A stretch of 64,000 nucleotides of DNA, taken from assembly GCA_963674595.2 (NCBI GenBank), contig CAXXFV010000016.1, positions 544,001-608,000 on the forward strand, given 5' to 3'. The notes beneath the pieces are model-generated. The model saw only the letters and a list, made by a program, of their open reading frames with translations. It made no database searches and was not told where the DNA came from. Positions 3,344 to 30,759 of this stretch are shown here, piece after piece. The stretch comes from a bacterium (lineage in GTDB: Bacteria > Zhuqueibacterota > Zhuqueibacteria > Residuimicrobiales > Krinioviventaceae). How positions within the stretch are numbered: position 1 is the first letter of the stretch; the number at the start of each line of letters is the position of its first letter. The translations under genes and the position numbers were made by a program.

Positions 3344-3941
3344 GACAATCAAAACAAGTGTTTTTTTATTAAAGGATTGGGTGAATAATCCGTTTTATTA
3401 CATACCATGATTGCCCAATGTGAACAAACCGTAGGGGCAATCCCCCGTGATTGCCCAAAGTAAACAGATCGCAGGGGCAATCCCCCGTGATTGCCCAAAT
3501 TGAACAGATCGCAGGGGCAATTCATTGTGATTACCGTTACCAGGACAGACACAGGGGTCTGTCCCTACGGTTTTTGGGGACAATTTGACAATCAAAATAA
3601 GTGTTTTTTTATTAAAGGGTTGGGTGGATACAACGTTTTATTACATATCATGATTGCCCTTTGTGAACAGATGGTAGGGGCAATCCCCCGTGATTGCCCA
3701 AATTGAACAGATCGCAGGGGCAATTCATTGTGATTACCGTTACCAGGACAGACACAGGGGTCTGTCCCTACGGTTTTTGGGGACAATTTGACAATCAAAA
3801 TAAGTGTTTTTTATTAAAGGGTTGGGTGGATACAACGTTTTATTACATACCATGATTGCCCTTTGTGAATAGATGGTAGGGGCAATCCCCCGTGATTGCC
3901 CAAAGTAAACAAACCGTAGGGGCAATCCCCCATGATTGCCC
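3344..3941. repeat. Nested tandem array of REP-like palindromes (BIME/REPIN-like)
   Basis: Higher-order units start at 3344, 3587 and 3790 (periods 243 and 203 bp). REP-A G(T/C)AG-GGGCAATC-CCCCRT-GATTGCCC lies at 3431, 3471, 3674, 3876 and 3916, with degenerate copies at 3511 and 3714, on a 40-bp sub-period. REP-B GTAG-GGACAGAC-CCCTGT-GTCTGTCC lies on the minus strand at 3543-3568 and 3746-3771. Confidence 0.92.
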
Positions 3942-4168
3942 GTTACGAACTGCAAACATTGAAAAAAATAAACTTTTTGCAATATACTATTGCCTTTTTG
4001 ATAAAAATTGTTTGATTACAGGTATGGATAGATGACAAGGTATTGTTTTCTCCCCCCTCCAGGCTTTGACTGGTATTCCCACCGAACAACATAATACCCT
4101 TGCCGTGCTGAATCTCTAATATCATATACACCGCCAGGTGTAAATAACGATAATCAGAGAGGTGCAAA

Positions 4169-6103
4169 ATGGACAACAAGACTTTAAAAAATCTGTTCAT
4201 CACATCGCTGGTGTTTTTTACCATGTTATCTTCTGCTTTTGCCGCTGACCGGCTTTCCGGCCGCGTTTACGAGGGCGACACGGGCGTAGAACCTCCCACA
4301 TCAACAGCTTTGGCAAATGTAACGGTTACGCTTTATGCTTCCAACAACAGTACCCAGCTTGGGTCACAAATTGACATCACCACCACCAACAGTGAGGGAT
4401 GGTACGGACTCGATGCTGATGAGGGGTACGAATATTATACCATTGTTGAAACAGATCCTTCCACGCACTATTCGGCAGGGGCGACTTCGGTTGGCGGAAC
4501 GGTCGTAACCAGCAATCGAATCCGTTACAGTGTTGCAGCAGCGCCGTTGTCACAGCAAACACTCACCGGCAACAAGTTTTGGGACAAACCAACCGCCCCG
4601 GCAAACACAAACCCTGTTGCTGATGCCGACGGTCCTTATTCCGGCATGACAGGGCACTCGATTACGTTGGATGGTTCCGGTAGTTACGATCCGGATTCCG
4701 GTGACAGCATTGCCGGCTATGAATGGGACCTGGATCATGACGGACAGTACGATGATGCGACCGGGGTCAGCCCATCACATACCTGGTATTCGGCCGGTAC
4801 TTTTTATATTGAACTCAAAGTAACGGATACTCATGGCGCATCCGATACGGACAGCACGATTGTAACAATTTCTCAGGAACCGCGCGAATGCGAGGCGAAT
4901 TTTTCCGCATCACTCCTTTCCGGGTGTGCGCCGTTGACCGTTAATTTTTCAGATGCGTCCACCAATGCTGTTTTCTGGGAGTGGACTTTTCCGGGCGCAA
5001 GTCCGGGTTCAAGCACACAAGAAAATCCGATTATTACCTATTCGACTCCCGGTGATTATAGCGTAAAACTAAAAATTATCTGTGAAGGAGGGTATGTTGA
5101 CTCGGTCATTGTTTTGAATTACATCCATGTGCAGCAATGTGAAGAAGAAATCGATTTTGGCGACGCACCGGATTATTATCCCACCTTGCTTAGTGATGAC
5201 GGTGCCCGGCACCTGATTGATCCTGACCTGTTTTTAGGCAGCAAAATTGATCCCGAATCTGATGGTCAGCCGGACGGCGCCGCTATGGGTGATGACAATG
5301 ACGGGAATGATGATGAGGACGGTGTTAACTTTGTGTCACCCTTTGTCACCGGTGCAACGGCAAATCTGGATGTGACCGCATCGGCAAGTGCTGTATTAAA
5401 CGTATGGATTGACTATAATCAAAACGGCAGTTGGGCTGAAGCCGACGAACATGTCTTTATAGACAAGGCGGTTACACCAGGACTCAATAATCTCACCGTA
5501 AATGTTCCGGCAAATGCTGTTACCGGCGAAACCTTTGCCCGTTTTCGATTGACCTGGGAGGCCGGTATGGGTTATGATGGTTCTGCTGAAAATGGTGAAG
5601 TGGAAGATTATTTGATTCAAATTGAACCGGGAGAAAATGATAATTCCGTCGGGGACAGGGTTTGGGAAGATTTAAACCACAACGGACTTCAGGATGAAGG
5701 AGAACCGGGACTGGACAGCATTTATGTATCACTGCTTGACCAAAATGGAAATTATCTGGCATCTACAGTGTCCAATTTGAGTGGCTTTTACATGTTTTCC
5801 AATTTAACCCCGGGCAGTTTTTATTTTCGATTTTCTACGCGATACGGGTATGTATACAGCCCGGCTGATCAGGGAACAGACGACGCTATTGATAGCGACG
5901 CGAATACCGCTACAGGTGAAACGCCGGTTTTTAGCATAGCGGTTGGTGAGAATATTGCCAATATGGATTGCGGTTTATACCGTGAGGCGGGTACGGACGA
6001 GTACGATTTTGGCGACGCACCTGACCCGACGTTCCCAACATTGCTGGCAAACGACGGGGCCAGACATGTGATCCATGAAAATGTTATATGGGAGCCGGTA
6101 TAG
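4169..6103 (+). CDS. N-terminal part of a giant secreted GEVED-repeat protein (signal peptide, two PKD domains, GEVED, SdrD B-like); frameshifted into the next ORF
   Basis: Signal peptide ending SAFA; PKD motifs (PVADADGPY, YEWDLD, WEWTFPG); DFGDAP...GEVEDY; SdrD-like VGDRVWEDLNHNGLQDEGEPG. Ends mid-repeat at GARHVIHENV. RBS GAGAGGTG. Confidence 0.85.
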   Translation: MDNKTLKNLFITSLVFFTMLSSAFAADRLSGRVYEGDTGVEPPTSTALANVTVTLYASNNSTQLGSQIDITTTNSEGWYGLDADEGYEYYTIVETDPSTHYSAGATSVGGTVVTSNRIRYSVAAAPLSQQTLTGNKFWDKPTAPANTNPVADADGPYSGMTGHSITLDGSGSYDPDSGDSIAGYEWDLDHDGQYDDATGVSPSHTWYSAGTFYIELKVTDTHGASDTDSTIVTISQEPRECEANFSASLLSGCAPLTVNFSDASTNAVFWEWTFPGASPGSSTQENPIITYSTPGDYSVKLKIICEGGYVDSVIVLNYIHVQQCEEEIDFGDAPDYYPTLLSDDGARHLIDPDLFLGSKIDPESDGQPDGAAMGDDNDGNDDEDGVNFVSPFVTGATANLDVTASASAVLNVWIDYNQNGSWAEADEHVFIDKAVTPGLNNLTVNVPANAVTGETFARFRLTWEAGMGYDGSAENGEVEDYLIQIEPGENDNSVGDRVWEDLNHNGLQDEGEPGLDSIYVSLLDQNGNYLASTVSNLSGFYMFSNLTPGSFYFRFSTRYGYVYSPADQGTDDAIDSDANTATGETPVFSIAVGENIANMDCGLYREAGTDEYDFGDAPDPTFPTLLANDGARHVIHENVIWEPV

Positions 6104-20240: not shown

Positions 20241-21443
20241 TTGGTTTCCTATATTTTATTAATATTATATAACTAAAATTGAGTAAACTCGAAATATAAA
20301 GCTGAATTGTTAACCTTTTTCAGCTAATAATTTTGAAAATTCATTTACAAATGACGTTGCTTCCTGGGCAACTCTGGCAGATGAAAGATAATTAAATCTT
20401 CCCTGACGTCCTAATGTATAAATTCCAAAATTTTCTACCTTGTTAATTAAGTTTTGAGCTTTATTAATTTCTGTTGTGGTATACAGAGGATAACCATAAT
20501 CTGTTATTGTTCCACCCTTGTATTTAAAAATTCCTTTGAACAAAAAACTTTTGGATATATGCTGTTCAAAATTTTGCTTTTGTTGTTCCAATACAAGTTC
20601 ATTTTCAGGACCGTTTTTATGTGGAGCCAAAGTGCCTTCAACAGTAAAATAAAGTTTACTGCTTTCACTATTTGATTGTTTGAATATTGTAATCCTTTTC
20701 CAATCTCCTTCGGGAGAATAATTCATAATTATTGAGGCGTTGGAATTCATAGTTCCATGAAATTCATAAAATAGCGAATACAATTTCAGATATGTCAAGT
20801 CACAATTTTGGTTTGGAAAACAACAGTTATTTAGTTCGGTTAAAGGGATTGTTGATATAATATAATCATAAGACCGTGTATTGCCATTAAAATGAATTGA
20901 ATAATTATTTTTATTCCTGTCTATTTGTCTAATATCAGAATTGTATAATATATTAATATTTTTTGATGTTAGATGATTTTCAATTTTTTTAAATATTTGA
21001 TCAAATCCTTGATTAGAGATACGAAGCAGTTTTTTGTTTGGTACTGTGTTATTGTTTTTTTTACGGAAAATAGGGGCCCATTTTTGTTTAATATATTTTT
21101 TTATTTTGTAATTCTCTAAAAACAACATTCTTTTATTATAAAAATCGATGTCAATATTTCTATTGTCGGTGTGAAATAGTTTATTTAAATAGCTTTCCAA
21201 TCCGCTGTTTTTATAAACAACATCGCTGATTGTATATTTTATTCTCGATTCGAATTTCGGATCATTTCTATGATTAATTTTACTTATTAATAAAGACGCC
21301 ATTGCAAGATAAAAATTTACAATTCCATTTTCTTTGATATAATTTTTTAAATTAAGCGGAAAACTGTAATGTAATACTTATCTTTGAACTTGAGAAAAGG
21401 GCCAAAAATATTAAATTAGTCTATTATGAAAAATGGAGGCCCA

Positions 21444-21749
21444 ATGAGCAAACGAAGACGCTTTACTGCTGAAGAAAAAGTCCAAATTTTAAGAGAACAT
21501 TTAGAAAATAAGATCAGCATATCCGAAATAGCTAAACAATATAATATTCATCCTGTAGTTATACACAGATGGAAAAAAGAGCTCTTTGAAAATGCGCTTG
21601 ACGGTTTTTCCGGCAAACATAAAAAGCGTAAAGGAAAATCTGTCAAAGAAGAACGTCTTGAAACCAAAGTCAGCAAAATGCAGGAAGTCATCACCGAACT
21701 CTCCACAGAGGTCGTTGATTTGCGAAAAAAGTATTTTGGGGCAACCTGA
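21444..21749 (+). CDS. IS3 transposase OrfA (HTH)
   Basis: RRRFTAEEKVQIL...IHRWKK HTH; RBS GGAGG; ends just after the A AAA AAG slippery site. Confidence 0.92.
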   Translation: MSKRRRFTAEEKVQILREHLENKISISEIAKQYNIHPVVIHRWKKELFENALDGFSGKHKKRKGKSVKEERLETKVSKMQEVITELSTEVVDLRKKYFGAT

Positions 21750-21787
21750 AAAAGACATGGGTTGCTCCTGATGTTAGAGATGATGTT

Positions 21788-22714
21788 TTGTCTTCTCTGC
21801 AAACGTTAACGGCAAAGACCGGTGTTCCTTTGAGTTTATTACTCAAGACCATTGGTTTGTCCTGGACCCGGTACTATGACTGGCAAAAACGTTTTGGTCA
21901 ACCAAATCAACATAACAGCGACACACCTCGCAGCTTTTGGCTGGAACCGTGGGAGTGTCAACGTATCATAAAATACAAAAAGGAACATATGCAGATCGGC
22001 TATAAACGACTGACCTATATGATGCTTGATGAAAATGTTGTTGCTGTGAGCCCGTCAACGACCTATCGTATTCTGCGGAACGCCGGACTCACAAGTCAAT
22101 GGAATAACAGTACGTTACAATCAAATAAGAAAGGCTTTATTCAACCCAAAAGACCGCATCAGCATTGGCATATAGATATTTCCTATATTGCCTTTCATGG
22201 TTCGCATCTCTTTTTGATTTCTGTACTGGACGGATTTTCAAGATTTATCGTTCACCATGAATTAAGAACTCATATGCAGGAATATGATGTCGAGATTGTA
22301 CTGCAAAGAGCTTTGGAAAAATATCCAAATGAAAAACCTCGAATTATTTCCGATAATGGTTCACAGTTTATTGCCAATGACTTTAAATCTTTTTTAAGGT
22401 TAAATAATTTGACGCACGTTCGAACTTCGATTAATCATCCACAGTCGAATGGTAAAATTGAAGCTTTTCATAAAATCATTAAAAATGAATGCACCCGAAT
22501 TCAAAGTATGATTAATCTGGAGGATGCCAGAAATAAAGTCGTACTTTATATCCATCAATACAACTATAACCGGTTACACAGTGCTATTGGATTTATTACA
22601 CCATTTGACAAATTATCAGGAAAAGCTGATAGTATTTTCAAAGAACGTGATATGAAACTTGAACAAGCCCGCCAAAGAAGGCAGGAAAACAATAAAATTA
22701 TAAAGGCAGCTTAA
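21788..22714 (+). CDS. IS3 transposase OrfB (DDE integrase core), probably made as an OrfAB -1 frameshift fusion
   Basis: WHIDISY, ISDNGSQF, PQSNGKIEAFH and YNYNRLHSAIG motifs; the frame is open upstream to the slippery site at 21725-21731. Confidence 0.93.
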   Translation: MSSLQTLTAKTGVPLSLLLKTIGLSWTRYYDWQKRFGQPNQHNSDTPRSFWLEPWECQRIIKYKKEHMQIGYKRLTYMMLDENVVAVSPSTTYRILRNAGLTSQWNNSTLQSNKKGFIQPKRPHQHWHIDISYIAFHGSHLFLISVLDGFSRFIVHHELRTHMQEYDVEIVLQRALEKYPNEKPRIISDNGSQFIANDFKSFLRLNNLTHVRTSINHPQSNGKIEAFHKIIKNECTRIQSMINLEDARNKVVLYIHQYNYNRLHSAIGFITPFDKLSGKADSIFKERDMKLEQARQRRQENNKIIKAA

Positions 22715-23132
22715 AACTAACTTATTTCAAATATGCCTTTTCTCAAGTTTACCTTGAACCTTTACAGTAAAAGTTATTTAATGGTGTTATTAATATCGGT
22801 TTGATTTCTTCTGATATAAAATCTGATTTAATAAATGGGAATGTTTTAAAAATACTATTATTCTCATAAAAAATAAAACTGCCTATGTCATAATTTATTT
22901 CGTTTCGTTTTACTGAAGATATCAATCCTCCAAGTTGAGAACGTTTTTCCAATAAATCGATTTTAAGGTTCGTGTTTTGTGCTAATTCATTAGCTATGAA
23001 TATTCCTGAAACGCCTCCGCCTAACACTGCTAATTTGACCAATTTATCCTCCCATAAGCTTTTGTGTACTCGAGTATATTCAAGTGGTATGAAATATTAG
23101 TTTAAAGATTTCACCGATTTGTAATGTTATTA

Positions 23133-23627
23133 TCAGGGTTCAACAATTTTGTATCCATTCAATTCCGCAAATATTTTAAAATGTTTTCGGATTTCCATGT
23201 TTTTGTAATAAGGGACATAGACTGTTATGCCATTATCCCTATTCAATTTTTGATAAATATCGAATGTGGCGTATTCAAATTTTACTTGTTCAATATCCTG
23301 CCATGAAATTCTTTTTGCTTTTTGAAAATAGTTGTCTTTAATTTCCAGTTTGTCCGCTAAAAAGTGGATGTATTGTCCGCCAAAAATTTTGTTTAAAACC
23401 GGGATAATGATATAAAACCAGCAAAGCACAACACCTGAAAAAAGTTGAACGTAATTTATGATCCTGTTCATAGTTTCCGTGTTCGAATCTCTTTTAATGA
23501 AAAAAGTAGTTATTAAAAAAGCGGCGAGAAGAACCATGATGATAAGGTGGAATTTATTTGTTTTGTTGGAAAAATCAGGGCTTTGCATAAACATGGAACC
23601 AATGTGAATTTTTTTGTTTTCCGGCAT
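23133..23627 (-). CDS. Hypothetical membrane protein (2 TM plus possible PH-like C-terminus)
   Basis: Two hydrophobic segments; ISWQDIEQV motif; GGAG upstream of ATG 23627 (ORF extends to 23657). Confidence 0.6.
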   Translation of the reverse strand: MPENKKIHIGSMFMQSPDFSNKTNKFHLIIMVLLAAFLITTFFIKRDSNTETMNRIINYVQLFSGVVLCWFYIIIPVLNKIFGGQYIHFLADKLEIKDNYFQKAKRISWQDIEQVKFEYATFDIYQKLNRDNGITVYVPYYKNMEIRKHFKIFAELNGYKIVEP

Positions 23628-23704
23628 TTTAATGTTCTCCGTATTAAAAATAATCACGTCCGTATCGTAGATTTTTTATTACAAAAACAACAAAGAATCC
23701 AGTA

Positions 23705-24340
23705 TTATTTTTTTATTAAAGTGTCCAATTCGAGTGTTTTGTCCGAAATTTTTATTTTAAAAAATTGATTTGATTCTTTAAATTCTATTATGTTTAGATT
23801 GTCAACATCGTATATATGGTCGGCAAAATTTTTTTCAAATATTTTTTTCTCTAATATAGGTATGGTTTTATATCGTTTACTGATAGTGAGATGTTTACCA
23901 CCTAAACCGACCCACCCATAATTAGATTTATTTAAAAAGTATTGATTTACTATCCTTTCAGTTTGTCTTTTGTTTGTATAATCTCCAATCACCCATATCA
24001 CCGCCATAAAAGCAATGGTGGATATCAAAAGAATCGACACTATAGGAATAATTCCAAAAAAATTAAGTATCCTTCTGGTTTTGATGTTTTTAAGGTATTT
24101 GATATTCCACACTATATAGCAATATGTGATATATGTTAATATAATTATTGAAATATTCAATGATTGCCATACAAACATTATTTTTAAAAAAATATATATA
24201 GTGATCAGTACAAGTAAGAGGCAAAAGAGTGTTGAAACGTAGATAAAACGTTTATGATTGAATTTTTTTTGTCGAAACGTTATTAAATACGATAGAACAG
24301 GAATTGCAAATATGGATATGTAAATGATTAAGACATGCAT
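23705..24340 (-). CDS. Hypothetical membrane protein (about 4 TM)
   Basis: 211-aa ORF in very AT-rich DNA with four hydrophobic segments. Confidence 0.6.
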   Translation of the reverse strand: MHVLIIYISIFAIPVLSYLITFRQKKFNHKRFIYVSTLFCLLLVLITIYIFLKIMFVWQSLNISIIILTYITYCYIVWNIKYLKNIKTRRILNFFGIIPIVSILLISTIAFMAVIWVIGDYTNKRQTERIVNQYFLNKSNYGWVGLGGKHLTISKRYKTIPILEKKIFEKNFADHIYDVDNLNIIEFKESNQFFKIKISDKTLELDTLIKK

Positions 24341-24562
24341 AATTGGTACTCTTTTCCCAATTTTATAACTGAATGTTTTGGAATTTATATGTTTTAAAAG
24401 AATTCCTCAGTCGTTGGCCATTTTGAACTTTTTTGTGCTTTAGAATCTTTTTGGTACACACTTGATAGTCAAAGTACTCCAATAATTAACAAAAAAATAT
24501 ATTCATTCTGTTTAATTAGTTTTGTAATTATTTTCAATTCAGTGTTCCAAATATTAAATTTA

Positions 24563-25117
24563 TCAAGATAGCCTTTTAAAATATCTATCATCCTGCCATT
24601 TTAATGGATTTTCTATAATATATTGTTGAATGCGGTTGAGATCTTTTTCATCGCGGATGATATGTTCATAATAATTTCGCTGCCACAATTTTTCATTGAA
24701 ACGACGCCAATTGTATTGTTTTACGCCGCCAATATACCGTTTTGTTGTTAATGATTTAAATCGTTGTACAACCTCGGGTAATGAAAACGTATGGGCAATC
24801 CCCTGTGATTGCCCGTTATTGGGACAGACACAGGGGTCTGTCCCTACGTTCGTGATGTTGATAATACCGTGCAAATGATTCGGCATAATTTGGTATAAAC
24901 CAATATCAATCCCATGGTAAAATTGTGGTATTTCATTCCATATATTTTTGATCATAATCCCCGGATCATTTAACACCATTTTTCCATCTTTAATGTATCC
25001 AAACAGCATTTCGTGGTTCTGTGTACAGATGGTTACAAAATACCAACCCGGTTGGGAATAGTCATATCCCTTTAATCTGATCGATTTACGATGGTGTTTA
25101 TCGGGATTGTATTTCAT
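24563..25117 (-). CDS. REP-associated HUH (Y1) tyrosine transposase, RAYT/TnpA-REP-like
   Basis: RKSIRLKGYDYSQPGWYFVTICT; HUH motif MPNHLHGII; LWQRNYYEHIIR; catalytic-type YIIENP; in-frame REP pair at 24789-24847. Confidence 0.93.
   Translation of the reverse strand: MKYNPDKHHRKSIRLKGYDYSQPGWYFVTICTQNHEMLFGYIKDGKMVLNDPGIMIKNIWNEIPQFYHGIDIGLYQIMPNHLHGIINITNVGTDPCVCPNNGQSQGIAHTFSLPEVVQRFKSLTTKRYIGGVKQYNWRRFNEKLWQRNYYEHIIRDEKDLNRIQQYIIENPLKWQDDRYFKRLS
24789..24847. repeat. Inverted REP-A/REP-B doublet inside the RAYT coding sequence
   Basis: GTAT-GGGCAATC-CCCTGT-GATTGCCC, 7-nt spacer, GGACAGAC-ACAGGG-GTCTGTCC-CTAC. Confidence 0.9.
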
Positions 25118-25191
25118 GTTATTTGGTATTAAAATATTTAATGATAAATTTTTTATTTTTCGAATTTATATGTTTGAACGTCATCTATATT

Positions 25192-25337
25192 CCGTTTTGT
25201 TGTTAATGATTTAAATCGTTGTACAACCTCGGGTAATGAAACCGTAGGGGCAATCCCCTGTGATTGCCCGTTATTGGGACAGACACGGGGGTCTGTCCCT
25301 ACGTTCGTGATGTTGATAATACCGTGCAAATGATTCG
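25192..25337 (-). repeat. Partial RAYT gene copy with REP doublet (25244-25302)
   Basis: Near-identical to about 24737-24882. Confidence 0.9.
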
Positions 25338-25405
25338 ACCTGGCTTGGAGCCAGAAAAAAAGTTGCTTCTAAATTCTCGTGAGAAATTACTATTCTTTGT
25401 AATAA

Positions 25406-26116
25406 TTAATCTATGCTTAATATTACCTTTTCATTTGATAAAAATTTTAGCCCTATTTTTGTAATTACAAAAAGTAAAATAATAACTATTATCTGATATA
25501 TAATAAATGAAAATTCTATATTAAATTTATTGGGTTTTAAAAAATAAAATAAAGCACCGATAAAGATATAAAATCCTATTCTTATCTTTGTTTCATCTTT
25601 TGATAGCATCGTTACTATACCGATAAACCCGATTAGAAAAAGACAGATAATAGGATTAATTACCAAGAGTGATATTAATCCATGGGTGGAAGGGAAAAGC
25701 GTTTGAGCACTAATGATGGAATGGTTGATAATAATTAACATTGCAAAAGATAAAATAATCGACAAAATATAACCCACTGTTAAAATTGCCAATGTTTTTC
25801 CCAACCAAATTGTTTTTATATTTAATGGAGTTGAAAGTAATGAATGTATTGTATTTGATACTTTTTCTTGAAGAAAGAGCTGGTAATTAGCAGAATAGGC
25901 TAGGAACAAGATAAAAAGAATGGAATAAAAGAGGAAATAAAAATCAATTGCTAATGTTAATAAATTTTTATCAAAACTTATTTTTAAGAACATCTTGAAT
26001 GGCAAGTAAATCATCATCATACCAGCCAACAGAATCATTACATAAATTCTTTTCTCTTTTAATAAATCTGTGAGCTGTTTTATATAAATCACTTTTAACA
26101 TAAAGTATCCTTTCAT
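25406..26116 (-). CDS. ABC-2 type transporter permease
   Basis: QEKVSNTIHSLLSTPL...IWLGK ABC-2 signature; about 6 TM; ATGA overlap with the ATPase stop. Confidence 0.85.
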   Translation of the reverse strand: MKGYFMLKVIYIKQLTDLLKEKRIYVMILLAGMMMIYLPFKMFLKISFDKNLLTLAIDFYFLFYSILFILFLAYSANYQLFLQEKVSNTIHSLLSTPLNIKTIWLGKTLAILTVGYILSIILSFAMLIIINHSIISAQTLFPSTHGLISLLVINPIICLFLIGFIGIVTMLSKDETKIRIGFYIFIGALFYFLKPNKFNIEFSFIIYQIIVIILLFVITKIGLKFLSNEKVILSID

Positions 26117-26874
26117 TCATTGACATACTTGAAATAGACTTTTTCCAAGTTATAAGCTTTATTTTCTGCGCGGCTTTTTAGAGAATGCACAGTTTCTTCA
26201 AGTTTAATCTCTCCGTCCTTAATAATAGCGATTTTATCACAAAGACGATCGACTTCATACAGATTATGGGAACTAAAAAAAACGGATATTCCTTTTTCCT
26301 TTAACAGATATAAAAGATGCTCTCTTACTACACTTTGCATGTCAGGATCAAGTCCGTTAAAAGGCTCATCAAGAATTAATAATTTAGGCTCATGAAGTAT
26401 TGCGCGAATAAAAGAAGATTTTTTTTTCATTCCCTGACTAAAAGTTGATACTTTATTGTTTTTATTTGTGGATAGATCAAATTTCACCAACAGTTCATCA
26501 ATTAGCTTCATTCCTTTTTTTTGGAAATTCAGTTTGTAAATGTCAGAATAAAATTTGAGGTTTTCCAATAATGTCATGTTTCCATACAGACCGTCATTTT
26601 CGAGCATAAAACCGATGTTGTTTTTATAATTTTTTAATGAAGAATTTCCATTGAATTTTATTTGACCTGTGAATTCTTCATAAAGGCCCAAAATAATTCT
26701 AATCGTTGTTGTCTTGCCGGCACCATTCGGTCCCAGGTATCCAAATATTTGACCTTGCTCCATATTAAACGAAATGTTCTTTAATATCTGCTTTCCATTA
26801 ATCGATTTGGATACATTTTCAAGTGTAAGCATGATATTTTTTGTTCCTTTTGGTTGTTTTGAATTATTGCTCAT
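26113..26874 (-). CDS. ABC transporter ATP-binding protein (start 26874 or 26832)
   Basis: Walker A GPNGAGKTT, signature FSQGMKK, Walker B LILDEP, H-loop SSH. Confidence 0.93.
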   Translation of the reverse strand: MSNNSKQPKGTKNIMLTLENVSKSINGKQILKNISFNMEQGQIFGYLGPNGAGKTTTIRIILGLYEEFTGQIKFNGNSSLKNYKNNIGFMLENDGLYGNMTLLENLKFYSDIYKLNFQKKGMKLIDELLVKFDLSTNKNNKVSTFSQGMKKKSSFIRAILHEPKLLILDEPFNGLDPDMQSVVREHLLYLLKEKGISVFFSSHNLYEVDRLCDKIAIIKDGEIKLEETVHSLKSRAENKAYNLEKVYFKYVNE

Positions 26875-26904
26875 ATTTAAGCGTCTACATTTAATTAGGA
26901 TATT

Positions 26905-27178
26905 TTTTAAAATATCTATCATCCTGCCATTTTAATGGATTTTCTATAATATATTGTTGAATGCGGTTGAGATCTTTTTCATCGCGGATGATACGTTCAT
27001 AATAATTTCGCTGCCACAATTTTTTATTGAATCGACGCCAATTGTATTGTTTTACGCCGCCAATATAATGTTTTGTTGTTAATGATTTAAATCGTTGTAC
27101 AACCTCGGGTAATGAAAACGTATGGGCAATCCCCTGTGATTGCCCGTTATTGGGACAGACACAGGGGTCTGTCCCTAC
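26905..27178 (-). pseudogene. 3' half of the RAYT gene (duplicate), starting exactly at the REP-B GTAG
   Basis: 274 bp nearly identical to 24574-24847; lacks the N-terminus and HUH motif. Confidence 0.9.
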
Positions 27179-27211
27179 CAAATATTATCACCCATAACAA
27201 TATTTTTATTT

Positions 27212-27357
27212 AACATCATCTATATATCGTTTTGTTGTTATTGCTTTAAACCATTGTACAATCTCAGGTAATGAACCCGTATGGGCAAGCCCCTGTGATT
27301 GCCCTTACTCTGTGATTGCCCAAAGTCAGGACAGACACGGGGGTCTGTCCCTACGTT
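27212..27357 (-). repeat. Diverged RAYT fragment with expanded REP doublet
   Basis: Resembles 25178-25305 with substitutions; has an extra TGTGATTGCCC half-arm; REP-B ends CTAC at 27354. Confidence 0.8.
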
Positions 27358-27586
27358 ATTCAAATGTAATCTTTTCCTCGTATATATTCGCTACCCAATT
27401 TTTAATATTTGGAAAATCCGTAAAAGCCGTGCCTGAGAATGTCCCGAAAAATTCCAGCCGTCCGAAGCAACAATGTTTTTACTTGTAATAAGATAGTACA
27501 AAATATACAATAACCGCGCAAGCTGTTTTTAAAAAAATTACGACTTTTTCTGCTGCTAAAATATTTGAAGCTTTGTTCATTTTTTA

Positions 27587-27615
27587 TTGACTTTATTGTC
27601 CTTTTCTGTTATCTT
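27587..27615 (+). promoter_or_regulatory. sigma70-like promoter candidate
   Basis: TTGACT-17 bp-TATCTT with TGn extended -10. Confidence 0.45.
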
Positions 27616-27883
27616 GGTCCATTCAAGATTTATATTTTTAGGGACGGTTTCGTTGGGTTCCTTTATCCTGTGAAATTATATTTTTATTACTTTTGGGTAT
27701 GTTGTATCGCATAATATAACTTTTGTTATATCGTACAGATGTGATACGCATTGATGGTAATTGCTTTACTTGTGGATTGCGGTTTTAATGGTATTTATGG
27801 TACTGTTAAGGCATTTATTAATAATGGGTGTTCATTTTACGGATGGACCCGGTTTAAATTAATTTCCCATCAAATAAAGGGGT

Positions 27884-28831
27884 ATGGTTATGAAACGCTT
27901 GTTTGTGAAATTTCGGTATGTTGTGCTGTTGCTCGTTGCTGTAGTATGTTTTGGCTTTATGTTTGTTAACCGCCGGCCTGATTCAGAAATGGAATATGTC
28001 CGTTTAATGGTTGCCGCCAATAATGATTACAAGGTGCAGTTTACTTTTGATCAGTATGAGTCCCTGCTGCAAAAGCTGACGCAAGCTAGATTCAAGGTCC
28101 TGCCGCTTGAGCTTTTTCGACAGCACTATGATCCGGACAAAATTTTGGTTGGGTTGCGGCATGATGTTGATCTACAGCCTTTTACGGCCGTGAAAATGGC
28201 TAAACTGGAAAAAAAGTATGATCTTCCTGCCACCTACTATATCCTGCATTCTGCTTTTTATTACGGAACCATTGAAAACAGAGATGTTACCCGTCGGCCC
28301 TGCATGGACCGGATTTACAAACAGATATATAAACTGGGGCACGAGATAGGTGTGCACAACGATCTCATGACGCTGACAGTTTCAGGTATTGATCCTCTGG
28401 CTTTTCAAAAACAGGAATTGGAATACTATTGCGATCTGGGCATTCCAATTACCGGTTCCTGTGCACATGGGTATCCCTTGTTTAAACAGATTGGTTTACC
28501 GAATTTTAGCATGTTTTCCGACTTTTGCTCATCGGGGAGTTTTAATTTTGCCAACCAATCCTATAACTATGGCGAGTACTCTCTTGAGGAGTTTGGCTTT
28601 GAATATGAAGCCTATCATATTGACCATAATATTTTTATCAGAGATTCCCGGGGGCGGTTTAGCGTGGGTTCTTTTCAGGATGTGCTGAAAACTGTGGACG
28701 CCTGTCGTCCGGGCGACCGGATGATAATTTTGACACACCCGGTTTGGTATGGTGAGCAGGTCGGACATGAAATTCATTATGAACATGCGGACAAGGACAA
28801 AGAGGAGCTCAATATTTTTCAGACAGATTAG
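27884..28831 (+). CDS. Polysaccharide deacetylase-like (NodB-fold) protein with N-terminal anchor
   Basis: LRHDVD, ATYYI, GHEIGVH, CAHG and LTHPVWY motifs. Confidence 0.78.
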   Translation: MVMKRLFVKFRYVVLLLVAVVCFGFMFVNRRPDSEMEYVRLMVAANNDYKVQFTFDQYESLLQKLTQARFKVLPLELFRQHYDPDKILVGLRHDVDLQPFTAVKMAKLEKKYDLPATYYILHSAFYYGTIENRDVTRRPCMDRIYKQIYKLGHEIGVHNDLMTLTVSGIDPLAFQKQELEYYCDLGIPITGSCAHGYPLFKQIGLPNFSMFSDFCSSGSFNFANQSYNYGEYSLEEFGFEYEAYHIDHNIFIRDSRGRFSVGSFQDVLKTVDACRPGDRMIILTHPVWYGEQVGHEIHYEHADKDKEELNIFQTD

Positions 28832-28864
28832 GTTTGTGTTTTATCTTAAACGTATAAAAGACGC

Positions 28865-29482
28865 TTAAATCCCGTGGATCGTGATTTTAATACCGTCGAT
28901 TATAAGTATAACGGCAAAAATCATCAATACAATACCCAGTAGCTTTTGAATATTAAAAAAAGTTTTGGGTGAAAAGAATTTTTTTGACCGGCCGACAACT
29001 ATGGCCATGAATATTTTTGAGCCGATAAGGCAGCAATAAAATCCTGCCAGAAATGCTATGAATGCGATATTGCTGACATGTAAGGCTTTTACCAGGATCG
29101 GTGAACCAATCATGATCCAGAAAATATAGGGGTGAGGACTGGCGAAATTGACAATGACCGCTTTGAAAATGGATTTTGGGGGCTGTTTTTGAATAGACAG
29201 CTCCTGATCTGTTTTAAATCCTGAAATTCCCAGATAAAAAAGATATACCGCCCCAAATACTGACAATGCCCCCAGCAGCCACGATAAATAGGACAGTTTT
29301 TGTAAAAGCAAATAACTGCCGAGAACAATCGGTGCATCCGTGATAAAAGGCGCCAGAGAGGCTTTGATACCGGCTTTGGTATTGTGGCTGAATGTTTCGG
29401 AAATGACAAGGGCTGACAGTGGTCCCGGACTGAAACCGGCCGTCAGCCCTAATGTTATTCCCATTGTTAAAAAAGTCAACAT
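28865..29482 (-). CDS. LysE-family translocator
   Basis: GFSPGP, GAVYLFYLG and NFASPHPYIFW motifs; probable ATG 29482. Confidence 0.88.
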   Translation of the reverse strand: MLTFLTMGITLGLTAGFSPGPLSALVISETFSHNTKAGIKASLAPFITDAPIVLGSYLLLQKLSYLSWLLGALSVFGAVYLFYLGISGFKTDQELSIQKQPPKSIFKAVIVNFASPHPYIFWIMIGSPILVKALHVSNIAFIAFLAGFYCCLIGSKIFMAIVVGRSKKFFSPKTFFNIQKLLGIVLMIFAVILIIDGIKITIHGI

Positions 29483-29505
29483 AGATTTATAACTATATAT
29501 TAATA

Positions 29506-30759
29506 TCAGTTCCGTAAATGTCCTTCGCCCATTACAATCCATTTATAGGAAGTCAGGTCTTCAAGACCCATAGGGCCGCGGGCATGCAGTCTGTCTGTTG
29601 AAATGCCGATTTCAGCGCCCAGGCCATAGACGCCGCCGTCTGCCAAACGTGTTGAAGCATTGACAATTACGGATGAACTGTCTGTTTTTTTAATAAAGCT
29701 GTTTGCTGTGGAAATGTTGGTTGTTACAATGGCGTCGGTATGACCGGAGCCGTATTTGTTGATATGTGCAATCGCTTCGCTTTCATTGTCGACAATTTTA
29801 ACCGCCAACACAAGGTCAAGATACTCATCATACCAGTCTTGCTCCGTCGCCTTGACAACATTTTTATTATATATAGCAATCGTTTTTTCACAACCCCGAA
29901 TTTCAACACCGGCGTCCTGCAGATTTTTTAAAGCTTTTGGCAAAAATTCAGCAGCAACGTCTTTATGGACCAACAGTGTTTCCATGGCGTTGCATACACC
30001 GGGGCGTTGAACTTTGGCGTTTTGGGCAATGTCCAGGGCCATTTGCATATCCGCATCCTGATGAATGTAAACATGGCATATACCTTTATAATGTTTCAAT
30101 ACCGGAATACGTGATTTTTCCACAACGCTTTTGATGAGACCTTCCCCGCCGCGGGGAATAATCAGGTGGACCAGATCGTCGAGGACCAGCAGTTCGTCAA
30201 CAGCTTTGCGGTCTGTAGATTCAATATAGGAGATCAGGTTCGGATCTGCATTGTTTTCTTTTAGCGCGTCTTTTAACACATTCACCAGCGCCATATTGGA
30301 ATAAAAGGAACTGCTGCCGCCGCGCAGAATAACGCCGTTGCCGGATTTTAAACACAGTGTGGCCGCTTCGATGGTGACATTTGGACGGGCCTCGTAAATA
30401 ATACCAATGACGCCGATAGGTACCCGCATGCGCCCCACTTTAAATCCTTCCGGTCTCACATTCATCTCGGATATGCGTCCGATTGGATCGGTCAATGCAG
30501 CAATTTCATGACAGGCCTGAATCATACCTTTAATACGTTTGTCCGTTAAGGTGAGGCGGTCTATCATGGCATTGGAAAGCCCGTTTTTTTTACCTTTTTC
30601 CAGGTCTTTGGTATTTTCCTGGATTAAATAGTCTTTTTGCTTTTCAATATTCTCGGCAATAGAAAGTAATATTTGGTTCTTCAACTTTGTCGTGCCTGCA
30701 TCCAAAAATGTTTCATAGGCTTTATATACATTTTGGGCTATAGTCTTTACATCATTCAT
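29506..30759 (-). CDS. proA: Gamma-glutamyl phosphate reductase
   Basis: VPIGVIGIIYEARPNVT, PGVCNAMETLL, NASTRLADG and GISTDRLHARGPMGL motifs. Confidence 0.98.
   Translation of the reverse strand: MNDVKTIAQNVYKAYETFLDAGTTKLKNQILLSIAENIEKQKDYLIQENTKDLEKGKKNGLSNAMIDRLTLTDKRIKGMIQACHEIAALTDPIGRISEMNVRPEGFKVGRMRVPIGVIGIIYEARPNVTIEAATLCLKSGNGVILRGGSSSFYSNMALVNVLKDALKENNADPNLISYIESTDRKAVDELLVLDDLVHLIIPRGGEGLIKSVVEKSRIPVLKHYKGICHVYIHQDADMQMALDIAQNAKVQRPGVCNAMETLLVHKDVAAEFLPKALKNLQDAGVEIRGCEKTIAIYNKNVVKATEQDWYDEYLDLVLAVKIVDNESEAIAHINKYGSGHTDAIVTTNISTANSFIKKTDSSSVIVNASTRLADGGVYGLGAEIGISTDRLHARGPMGLEDLTSYKWIVMGEGHLRN

Follow-up and report, generated by a model that had tools for sequence, protein, structure and literature searches.

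RAYT gene remnants ending at an in-gene REP doublet, and doublet-bounded strain differences, in a low-GC island of a Zhuqueibacterota bacterium

The window analyzed here is a stretch of 64,000 nucleotides (nt) of contig CAXXFV010000016.1 (assembly GCA_963674595.2, positions 544,001 to 608,000 of the forward strand) from a bacterium of the family Krinioviventaceae (Zhuqueibacterota). It contains a RAYT (or TnpA_REP) gene, which encodes a putative transposase of the HUH type and which carries, inside its own reading frame, two inverted repetitive extragenic palindromic (REP) hairpins, hereafter the doublet. Three partial copies of this gene, which we call SF1, R3' and SF2, lie around a pair of genes for an ABC ATPase and permease (the ABC pair). 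We found that RAYT copies, both at this locus and in other genomes of the order, are repeatedly broken at the internal doublet, and that related strains differ in gene content at the same hairpins. These differences were probably generated by exchange between doublets, through host recombination or slippage at the hairpins, in a decaying pile of RAYT copies within a strain-variable island.

RESULTS

RAYT copies at the locus

Read along the minus strand, the locus runs from the right flank through SF2, a 26-nt spacer, R3', the ABC ATPase gene, the permease gene, about 70 nt, SF1, about 35 nt and the intact RAYT gene; there follow two membrane-protein genes and then an amine-oxidase-like gene split by an IS3-family element. 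The RAYT pieces and the in-gene doublet are as follows.

24563-25117, minus strand: intact RAYT / TnpA_REP gene; open reading frame (ORF) of 184 amino acids (aa), with H81-L-H83, Y166 and N170
24789-24847, minus strand: REP doublet within RAYT, in frame; encodes about VGTDPCVCPNNGQSQGIAHT
25153-25338, minus strand: SF1, an old RAYT remnant; 33 nt of HUH-coding sequence, a doublet (25244-25302) and a diverged tail with a stop
26905-27178, minus strand: R3', the RAYT 3' part (codons 91-182), without the HUH half; doublet at 27120-27178
27205-27357, minus strand: SF2, an older RAYT remnant; doublet at 27279-27354, with a 17-nt internal duplication

An earlier note on this DNA had described an intact RAYT gene with three co-oriented partial copies, each bearing a REP doublet, on both sides of the ABC pair, and in this its coordinates and orientations hold. 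It had also read the two sides as the same module and had placed the doublet beside the RAYT sequence. In fact, the downstream side holds the whole gene while the upstream side lacks codons 1-90, and the doublet lies inside the reading frame, where it covers codons ~91-110, past H81-L-H83 and ahead of the helix beginning at L113.

R3' is 98.2% identical to RAYT nt 271-544 over 274 nt. Its homology starts exactly at the G of the GTAG that forms the foot of the doublet, upstream of which lies the spacer after SF2, and ends three codons before the RAYT stop, which is essentially the gene end. Four codons are changed, and because three of these changes alter a residue (R127H, E142K and H152R, of which H152 is at least 90% conserved), we regard R3' as a decaying pseudogene rather than a second enzyme. 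SF1 matches RAYT nt 236-386 at 97.4% over 151 nt (25187-25337) and then continues as a diverged RAYT-like remnant to ~25153; its first 151 nt have been homogenized with RAYT. SF2 is ~79% identical to RAYT, and its tail is closer to that of SF1 than to RAYT. The two tails share a motif, ATATAGATGAYGTT, that is absent from RAYT, and SF1 and SF2 are therefore older copies of one kind. At the protein level, R3' corresponds to aa 91-182, SF1 to aa 76-143 (with one TAA) and SF2 to aa 100-134 (with two). Identities of 97-98% over 151-274 nt cannot be chance, and this RAYT, with a 98% partial copy and a 97% fragment no more than 2.3 kb away, does not behave as a single-copy gene free of near-identical duplicates.

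The in-gene REP doublet

The doublet consists of two GTAG-footed hairpins that face each other, the first being GTAG-GGACAGAC/GTCTGTCC and the second, inverted one GGGCAATC/GATTGCCC-CTAC. GTAGGGACAGACCCC(T/C)GTGTCTGTCC is present in every RAYT piece at the locus and is followed, after a short spacer, by its inverted partner, GGGCAATCACAGGGGATTGCCC(C/A)TAC. In the window's RAYT, the foot of the second hairpin reads CATAC, whereas three related strains (X3, X7 and X8; see below) have CCTAC, which is GTAG on the other strand; the window's RAYT thus carries a mutated foot, and SF1 keeps the proper one. Folded as single-stranded DNA (ssDNA), the doublets of the intact gene (both strands), SF1 and R3' reach -17 to -18 kcal/mol, versus -7 to -8 kcal/mol for shuffles (z = -4.4 to -5.6); the value for SF2 (z = -1.9) comes from an incomplete stretch of that doublet. 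Around the RAYT gene, one GTAG-footed doublet lies 127 nt upstream of the start (that of SF1), one within the gene and none downstream.

When the two 15-nt feet were sought in the genome with up to 2 mismatches each, they gave 48 and 42 matches, which fall into 13 clusters and mostly form tandem arrays. These clusters comprise two arrays on contig C17, one on C27, one in the window (3408-3945), a doublet on C14, three clusters at the RAYT locus (its four doublets) and five single matches. The C17 arrays (G000:C17:82637-86770) yielded 36 complete units, which are 76 nt long in 24 cases and 75 nt long in 12; in the 76-nt units, the 17-nt linker resembles the 3' and 5' doublet flanks of RAYT joined together. 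Between the two arrays lies a segment of 1.3 kb with genes for a YefM-type antitoxin, a YoeB-type toxin and a membrane protein of 224 aa that belongs to no known family, and C17 is thus a second place where doublets bracket accessory genes. The array in the window has a 203-nt tandem period (2.4 copies) with both hairpin types mixed, and lies between a minus-strand gene ending at 2204 and the gene for a large secreted protein starting at 4169.

Hairpins in this position are common among more distant RAYT genes. Among 27 related loci, we examined 18 near-full-length matches (17 distinct); in 13 of the 18, the loop holds a hairpin whose stem is at least 7 bp long (with GTAG...CTAC feet in four cases), and the remainder have short loops without a hairpin (four loci) or are frameshifted (one).

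Strain differences at the locus

We compared strains at the locus by means of short de Bruijn k-mer contigs from public runs, among which no RNA run with the locus was listed. X1 is probably the window's own run, and X3, X7 and X8 are relatives from other studies, ~95-99% identical over the compared pieces. The X1 contigs cover each unique block with 0 differences and break at every repeated piece, those that run into the repeats being 22740-24603, 24853-25221, 25308-26934 and 27326-29776.

In X7, a contig of depth 2.8 joins 25269 to 27138 with 9 nt between them and so skips 25270-27137, the ABC pair included; the ends of this joint are equivalent points of the SF1 and R3' doublets. Up to the joint, this contig covers 24818-25269; another X7 contig covers 22869-24831, and depth is 0 over 25973-26339. 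For an empty-site allele, which the earlier note had proposed to look for, there is one candidate contig, in a strain covered patchily at ~3x. In X3 and X8, a contig spans 25308-27099, and the adjacency of the ABC pair and R3' therefore exists in independent assemblies. A second X3 and X8 contig runs from 23180 through TATTG directly to the foot of a REP hairpin, leaving 8 nt of the RAYT tail. No long contig piece among those listed for these two strains covers 23181-24852, where depth is low or nil in several bins, and the RAYT 3' part and most of the two membrane-protein genes appear to be missing from them. Altogether, two of the three structural differences in X3, X7 and X8 that do not involve an insertion sequence (IS) end inside a doublet or 8 nt from one.

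RAYT halves in other genomes

RAYT matches (E ≤ 1e-5) occur in 21 of 43 genomes of the order. Since the loop does not align, many of these genes give two separate matches, with the split at aa 90-110. The loci with half genes were found through RAYT similarity, and where a match stops close to the loop, the alignment is partly responsible; the absence of the other half is nonetheless real. At least four other genomes of the order contain RAYT halves that break off at the internal REP. These include a lone 3' half (aa 108-182) that starts at a GTAG...CTAC REP (G017:C2); a full gene with another, near-identical 3' part 230 nt beyond it that starts in the REP region (G013:C51); a 3' piece with a stop (G013:C43); and a 5' half that ends at the REP (G013:C29). 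In a further genome (G026:C2:187500-190200), two decayed RAYT copies lie 1815 bp apart with an HlyIII-family gene between them, and the upstream copy is a scrambled mosaic in which RAYT pieces are out of order and every junction lies beside a REP. RAYT fragments broken elsewhere than at the REP were also found (G010:C478, G021:C98, G022:C446, G042:C330 and G002:C124).

A tblastn search of the 27 distant RAYT loci found two RAYT pieces around other genes within a contig at none of them. The extra RAYT pieces seen there were a weak 25-aa match (L028), halves at contig ends (L046) and a fragment locus (L051). At four of these loci (L043, L046, L048 and L049), the contig ends in the RAYT loop, with matches that stop at aa 86-109 at the contig edge; in L046, the 3' half lies at one contig end and the 5' half at the other. 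In-gene REPs thus seem to break short-read assemblies, and many of the "partial" RAYTs in databases may stem from such assembly breaks.

The predicted RAYT protein and its paralogues

The RAYT gene looks functional, judging from its predicted product, which keeps all the catalytic residues; its modeled fold matches those of ISDra2, IS608 and the E. coli enzyme (PDB 4ER8), and Y166 and N170 align with 4ER8. H81-L-H83 forms the HUH motif, and the catalytic tyrosine (Y166) and metal-binding asparagine (N170) lie in YIIENP; across 21 sequences, these HUH, Tyr and Asn columns are invariant or at least 90% conserved. The counterpart in 4ER8 is the catalytic YIYINP stretch, in which N119 is numbered from a published passage and Y115 by our own count. 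Pfam Y1_Tnp matches the protein above its cutoff (26.2 bits versus 23). NCBIfam REP_Tyr_transpos scores below its own (62.4 bits versus 80) and aligns with the C-terminal half alone, because the loop insertion splits the domain. The AlphaFold2 model (mean pLDDT, 81.9; pTM, 0.77) is confident except for loop 88-111 and the termini, and a Foldseek search of the PDB with it returned ISDra2 (1.3e-6), 4ER8 (5.4e-6) and IS608 (~3e-5), i.e., an IS200/IS605-type fold; by sequence, the match to 4ER8 is marginal (E = 0.036).

The 6.6-Mb genome contains five RAYT paralogues, at 34-52% identity to the window's RAYT, and no second full copy close to it. We considered whether the gene belongs to an IS200/IS605 insertion sequence and rejected this: there is one full copy alone, the next paralogue is 52% identical, and there are no identical copies. 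Four other RAYT paralogues in the genome also have long, odd loops. One (G000:C8:51424-51996) carries a different repeat-encoded loop, ESCIRPESCIHPESHIHPES...GDHKDRPYG, and has one hairpin of the window's type 145 nt upstream; in another (C7:32287-32838), the repeat-encoded loop reads VGAKNFSPL.

The ABC pair and the low-GC island

The remaining features of the locus are as follows.

25406-26116, minus strand: ABC-2-type permease, 236 aa, 25% GC; weak Pfam ABC2_membrane_4 match
26113-26832, minus strand: ABC ATPase (Pfam ABC_tran, 2e-28); ORF open back to 26922, into R3'
23133-24340, minus strand: two AT-rich membrane-protein genes downstream of RAYT (23133-23657 and 23705-24340; 174 aa and 211 aa)
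20250-27800, no strand: low-GC, strain-variable island; genes at 25-32% GC versus ~38-42% in the flanks

The ABC pair reported in the earlier note at 25406-26874 is present, although the start of the ATPase is most likely 26832, judging from a homologue (L054) that begins at the matching Met. The best NCBIfam matches of the ATPase are to lantibiotic-protection and DrrA-type subfamilies, all below cutoff. In X3 and X8, the ATPase gene has lost 87 nt in frame (26659-26745), a deletion flanked by direct repeats of 10 nt; the Walker A codons are gone with it, and the transporter is therefore probably dead in these two strains. Neither of the two membrane-protein genes has a Pfam family above cutoff. 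Among the AT-rich orphan genes that had been described between 20310 and 24340, 20310-21302 and 22749-23042 are one flavin amine-oxidase-like gene, split by the IS3-family element. Of this element (21366-22766, 1401 bp; orfA 21426-21749, orfB 21788-22714), the genome holds five full copies, which are 97.7-100% identical, along with a decayed one. Contigs of X3, X7 and X8 all join 21365 to 22767 without it, and since it is missing from all three related strains, its insertion is recent. A scan of 24300-27600 for sigma-70-type promoters found 20 promoter-like sites versus 17.5 +/- 4.7 expected, and the terminator-like matches in this region are the REP hairpins themselves.

The ABC pair was found elsewhere on two metagenome contigs (L053 and L054), which probably derive from one organism. 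The permease there is 64% identical, and the DNA homology (76%) covers exactly the two ABC genes. The pair is at 27% GC versus 37-46% around it, in different surroundings (one with an IS21 element), and neither tblastn nor blastn found a RAYT or REP near it on either contig. Its AT richness (25-32% GC at the locus) and these other contexts mark the ABC pair as foreign and horizontally acquired. Since the L053 and L054 pair sits in other contexts that lack RAYT and REP, it follows that the pair moves between genomes, and not with these flanks. The gene to the right of the island gave weak matches alone, in two of 18 same-family genomes, a comparison set that contains none of the same genus.

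DISCUSSION

RAYTs have usually been treated as quiet, single-copy, domesticated genes, and their role is still debated. The earlier note followed this picture and took them to be single-copy genes flanked by REPs, which is outdated for the subclass in question, in-gene REPs having been published in 2018. In their analysis of TnpA_REP proteins, Quentin and colleagues described REP sequences inserted in tnpA_REP genes without a break in the frame (Quentin 2018, PMC6006769), and in subclass 2.4, which corresponds to RAYT group 4, these in-gene REPs are in frame and encode a loop after the HUH motif (PMC6006769, PMC5581495). A RAYT with an in-gene REP doublet is thus of an already known kind, and the doublet is a hallmark of subclass 2.4. 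The window's RAYT resembles that subclass in its Y1 HUH fold, its WQ motif, the insertion of an in-frame REP between beta3 and alphaC, its GT[AG]G-footed long REPs, its length (184 aa versus a median of 194 aa), the presence of several diverged paralogues in one genome and, putatively, the lack of a C-terminal tail domain (PMC6006769). It deviates once in each of two of the three key motifs given for subclass 2.4 (NH[IFV]H, WQ and YIxNNP), reading NHLH and YIIENP instead, while WQ is the same; subclass 2.6 has NH[LIV]H, YIH[QN]NP and a tail domain (PMC6006769, Table 1). Partial sequences were discarded before that analysis, and in the text of the paper, its supplementary figures S6 and S10 aside, we found no account of partial copies that begin or end at the in-gene REP, of strain differences bounded by REPs or of genes enclosed by RAYT pieces (PMC6006769). 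More widely in the literature, we found no description of RAYT halves bracketing genes or of REP-bounded cargo differences, although the supplements of Quentin 2018 and Di Nocera 2013 may bear on this. What appears to be new here is therefore the REP-ended gene halves and the doublet-bounded strain differences, the in-gene REP itself having been published already.

We consider it probable that the locus was shaped by exchange between doublets, through host recombination or slippage at hairpins, in a strain-variable island in which RAYT copies had piled up and were decaying. The locus would then consist of one working-looking RAYT and the remains of at least three older or duplicated copies (SF2, R3' and SF1), whose co-oriented doublets would serve as portable, hairpin-forming blocks of homology 48-60 nt long. 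Exchange between two such blocks would delete, duplicate or move the DNA between them. R3' would be the remnant of a full RAYT whose 5' part was deleted up to the GTAG foot of the internal doublet. In X7, a doublet exchange would have removed a block made up of R3' tail, ABC pair and 33-nt HUH piece, unless this block was never received, and X3 and X8 would have lost a segment that begins 8 nt after a doublet. Exchange of this kind could account for the R3' boundary, the X7 form and the scrambled copies elsewhere. We infer that the exchanges occur at the doublets themselves, and host recombination or replication slippage at the hairpins is more likely to have driven them than catalysis by RAYT. 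On this reading, the ABC pair would be bystander cargo and not the product of a dedicated capture device. Enterobacterial REPs offer a partial precedent in that short imperfect palindromes end duplications and excisions there without any dedicated system; the doublets here are longer, and one lies inside the gene of the very enzyme that is expected to recognize them (PMC1428787). It should be said that only 4 junctions in the work of Slack et al. (2006) contained REPs and that these authors argued against any preference for them (PMC1428787).

The earlier note had gone further, with the proposal that the REP-bearing segment of the transposase captures or shuffles cargo. Part of this proposal survives. 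That two of three non-IS strain differences end at or near a doublet, that an X7 contig skips the ABC pair and that RAYT halves recur elsewhere supports a view of the segment as a recombination site linked to variable content. A dedicated gene-capture system at this locus is not supported, because there is one cargo unit, the upstream copy is decayed and lacks the HUH half, and the other ABC loci have no RAYT or REP. The genome-wide search for RAYT copies that the note had called for did find flank-bearing fragments, although at this locus alone; the rest of the 6.6-Mb genome has no such RAYT sequence from outside the doublet. Neither in this genome nor, within a contig, at the 27 distant RAYT loci did we see the same flanking site reused with other cargo, the looser parallels being the C17 arrays around the toxin-antitoxin cassette and the decayed copies around the HlyIII gene in G026. 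Nor did cargo travel with its flanks, the homology to L053 and L054 being limited to the two ABC genes. An integron was rejected, there being no integrase and no cassette array.

Composite transposons, IS26 translocatable units, gene capture by IS91 and ISCR elements, and integron attC sites all place direct repeats of recombination-competent sequence around accessory genes. The locus differs from all of these in that it has no second competent end or enzyme copy, no varied cassette array, no reuse of the same flank with other cargo and no target-site signature. It does share with attC sites and HUH elements the use of folded single-strand hairpins as sites, a comparison with integrons that is also drawn in PMC8266576. 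A related system that has been studied biochemically is the E. coli REPtron (PDB 4ER8), which likewise has GTAG at the 5' foot of the hairpin and REPs in inverted pairs, and whose Tyr and Asn align with those found here; unlike the present case, with its in-gene doublet and 13 clusters, its REPs flank the gene and are dispersed in hundreds (PMC3479197, PMC8266576). Guided by GTAG, the E. coli TnpA_REP cleaves CT dinucleotides next to REPs, and it carries out strand transfer in vitro (PMC3479197, PMC8266576); the cleavage and strand transfer of this enzyme class offer a possible chemistry for the rearrangements (PMC8266576).

It is against this background that cassette mobility catalyzed by RAYT has to be weighed. 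In such a scheme, the enzyme would cut ssDNA near the foot of the doublet in its own gene and move the strand to another doublet, either as a circle that integrates at a doublet or by one-ended read-through as in IS91 and ISCR elements, and R3' tail, ABC pair and HUH piece would travel together. The block that is extra relative to the X7 contig is indeed bounded by two co-oriented doublets, and closing it into a circle would restore RAYT without a gap between codon 79 and the end. The catalytic residues are all retained, the breakpoints keep a fixed position with respect to the foot, the end in X3 and X8 falls after TTCAT, which is where the 17-nt array linker switches from likeness to the RAYT 3' flank to likeness to the 5' flank, and the bracketing of the YefM/YoeB pair and a membrane gene by two doublet arrays on C17 fits the scheme as well, as does the in vitro activity of the E. 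coli enzyme. That enzyme, however, cuts at CT dinucleotides, and there is no CT at the breakpoints here; moreover, the biochemistry covers this group 2 enzyme, the sole one studied before 2021, in a paper whose discussion extends to groups 2 and 3, and not subclass 2.4 (PMC8266576). A single unit with RAYT flanks in 6.6 Mb, the absence of RAYT or REP flanks at both other ABC-pair loci and the absence of a within-contig bracket at all 27 distant RAYT loci also count against the scheme, while the junction of a circle would read as RAYT's own internal sequence and so be invisible in contigs. On balance, we think that RAYT catalysis is an unlikely cause of these rearrangements.

Distinctly improbable, in our judgment, is a serial arrival without any REP-to-REP exchange, in which whole REPtrons landed repeatedly at a REP-rich spot and decayed by ordinary deletions, their co-orientation being due to single-strand transposition that follows the direction of replication and the ABC pair, brought in by an unrelated horizontal transfer, coming to lie between two of the copies by accident. 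The homology between RAYT and R3' does end at about the gene end, as it would for copies of a gene-sized unit; SF1 and SF2 are far older than R3' (~79% versus 98%); the genome holds five diverged RAYT paralogues; and the island has also recently gained the IS3 element. Nonetheless, serial arrival leaves unexplained both the deletion ends at or beside doublets, in the window and in the three strains, and the breakage of RAYT halves at the internal REP elsewhere, and the genome contains no close second full copy of RAYT as a source, given a nearest paralogue at 52%. That the partial copies or their order merely reflect misjoined repeats is very improbable indeed. The X1 contigs break at each repeated piece and therefore do not confirm the order of the unique blocks, and the 274-nt repeat would permit an alternative path, with R3' beside the downstream genes and a 2.3-kb circle. 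Against such an artifact, X1 covers the unique blocks without a difference and enters the repeats from both sides, the X3 and X8 contigs span 25308-27099, the X7 contigs span 22869-24831 and 24818-25269, and the copies are distinguished by diagnostic substitutions.

Several observations weigh against doublet exchange by host functions as we have set it out. At ~3x, the X7 coverage is patchy, and one permease bin still has a depth of 2.2 and one ATPase bin a depth of 5.6, so that the ABC pair may not be wholly absent from this strain; part of the depth in these two ABC bins comes from 35-nt chance matches with unrelated flanks. The strain contigs break at these very repeats, and the sides of the joints are 25-35 nt long (unstated for X7). 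Loss of the block cannot be told from gain. The permease has a homologue in none of the 18 same-family genomes, a set without a close relative for comparing synteny. A unit-cargo-unit layout is also expected from a circle that integrates at a doublet. Finally, several independent breakpoints lie at fixed distances from the REP foot, namely, at GTAG in R3', SF2 and G017:C2 and 8 nt 3' in X3 and X8. A site-specific nuclease predicts fixed breakpoints of this sort and homologous exchange explains them less naturally, which we take as a hint in favor of a site-specific cut.

One speculative possibility, which we hold to be quite unlikely, is that in subclass 2.4 RAYTs generally the in-gene doublet is a working recombination site, such that the enzyme cuts and rejoins the hairpins of its own gene and of other copies and in this way excises, integrates or copies doublet-bounded blocks as units. 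If so, enzyme-driven doublet exchange would yield both the RAYT halves seen in several genomes and the gain and loss of accessory genes at the strain level, and it would amount to an HUH-driven, hairpin-delimited form of cassette exchange in which the transposase gene itself is one of the attachment sites.

Whatever the agent, the locus shows the cost, or the use, of keeping a target hairpin inside a gene: the gene breaks there repeatedly, and its neighbors differ between strains at the same hairpins. If RAYT is responsible, this would be in-genome evidence of a group 4 RAYT rearranging DNA, and the locus would provide a simple model substrate, a single doublet whose breakpoints are defined, at the GTAG foot on one side and 8 nt beyond the foot on the other. 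Should host recombination be the agent, this would still be a clear case in which REP doublets serve as portable homology for the shuffling of an island.

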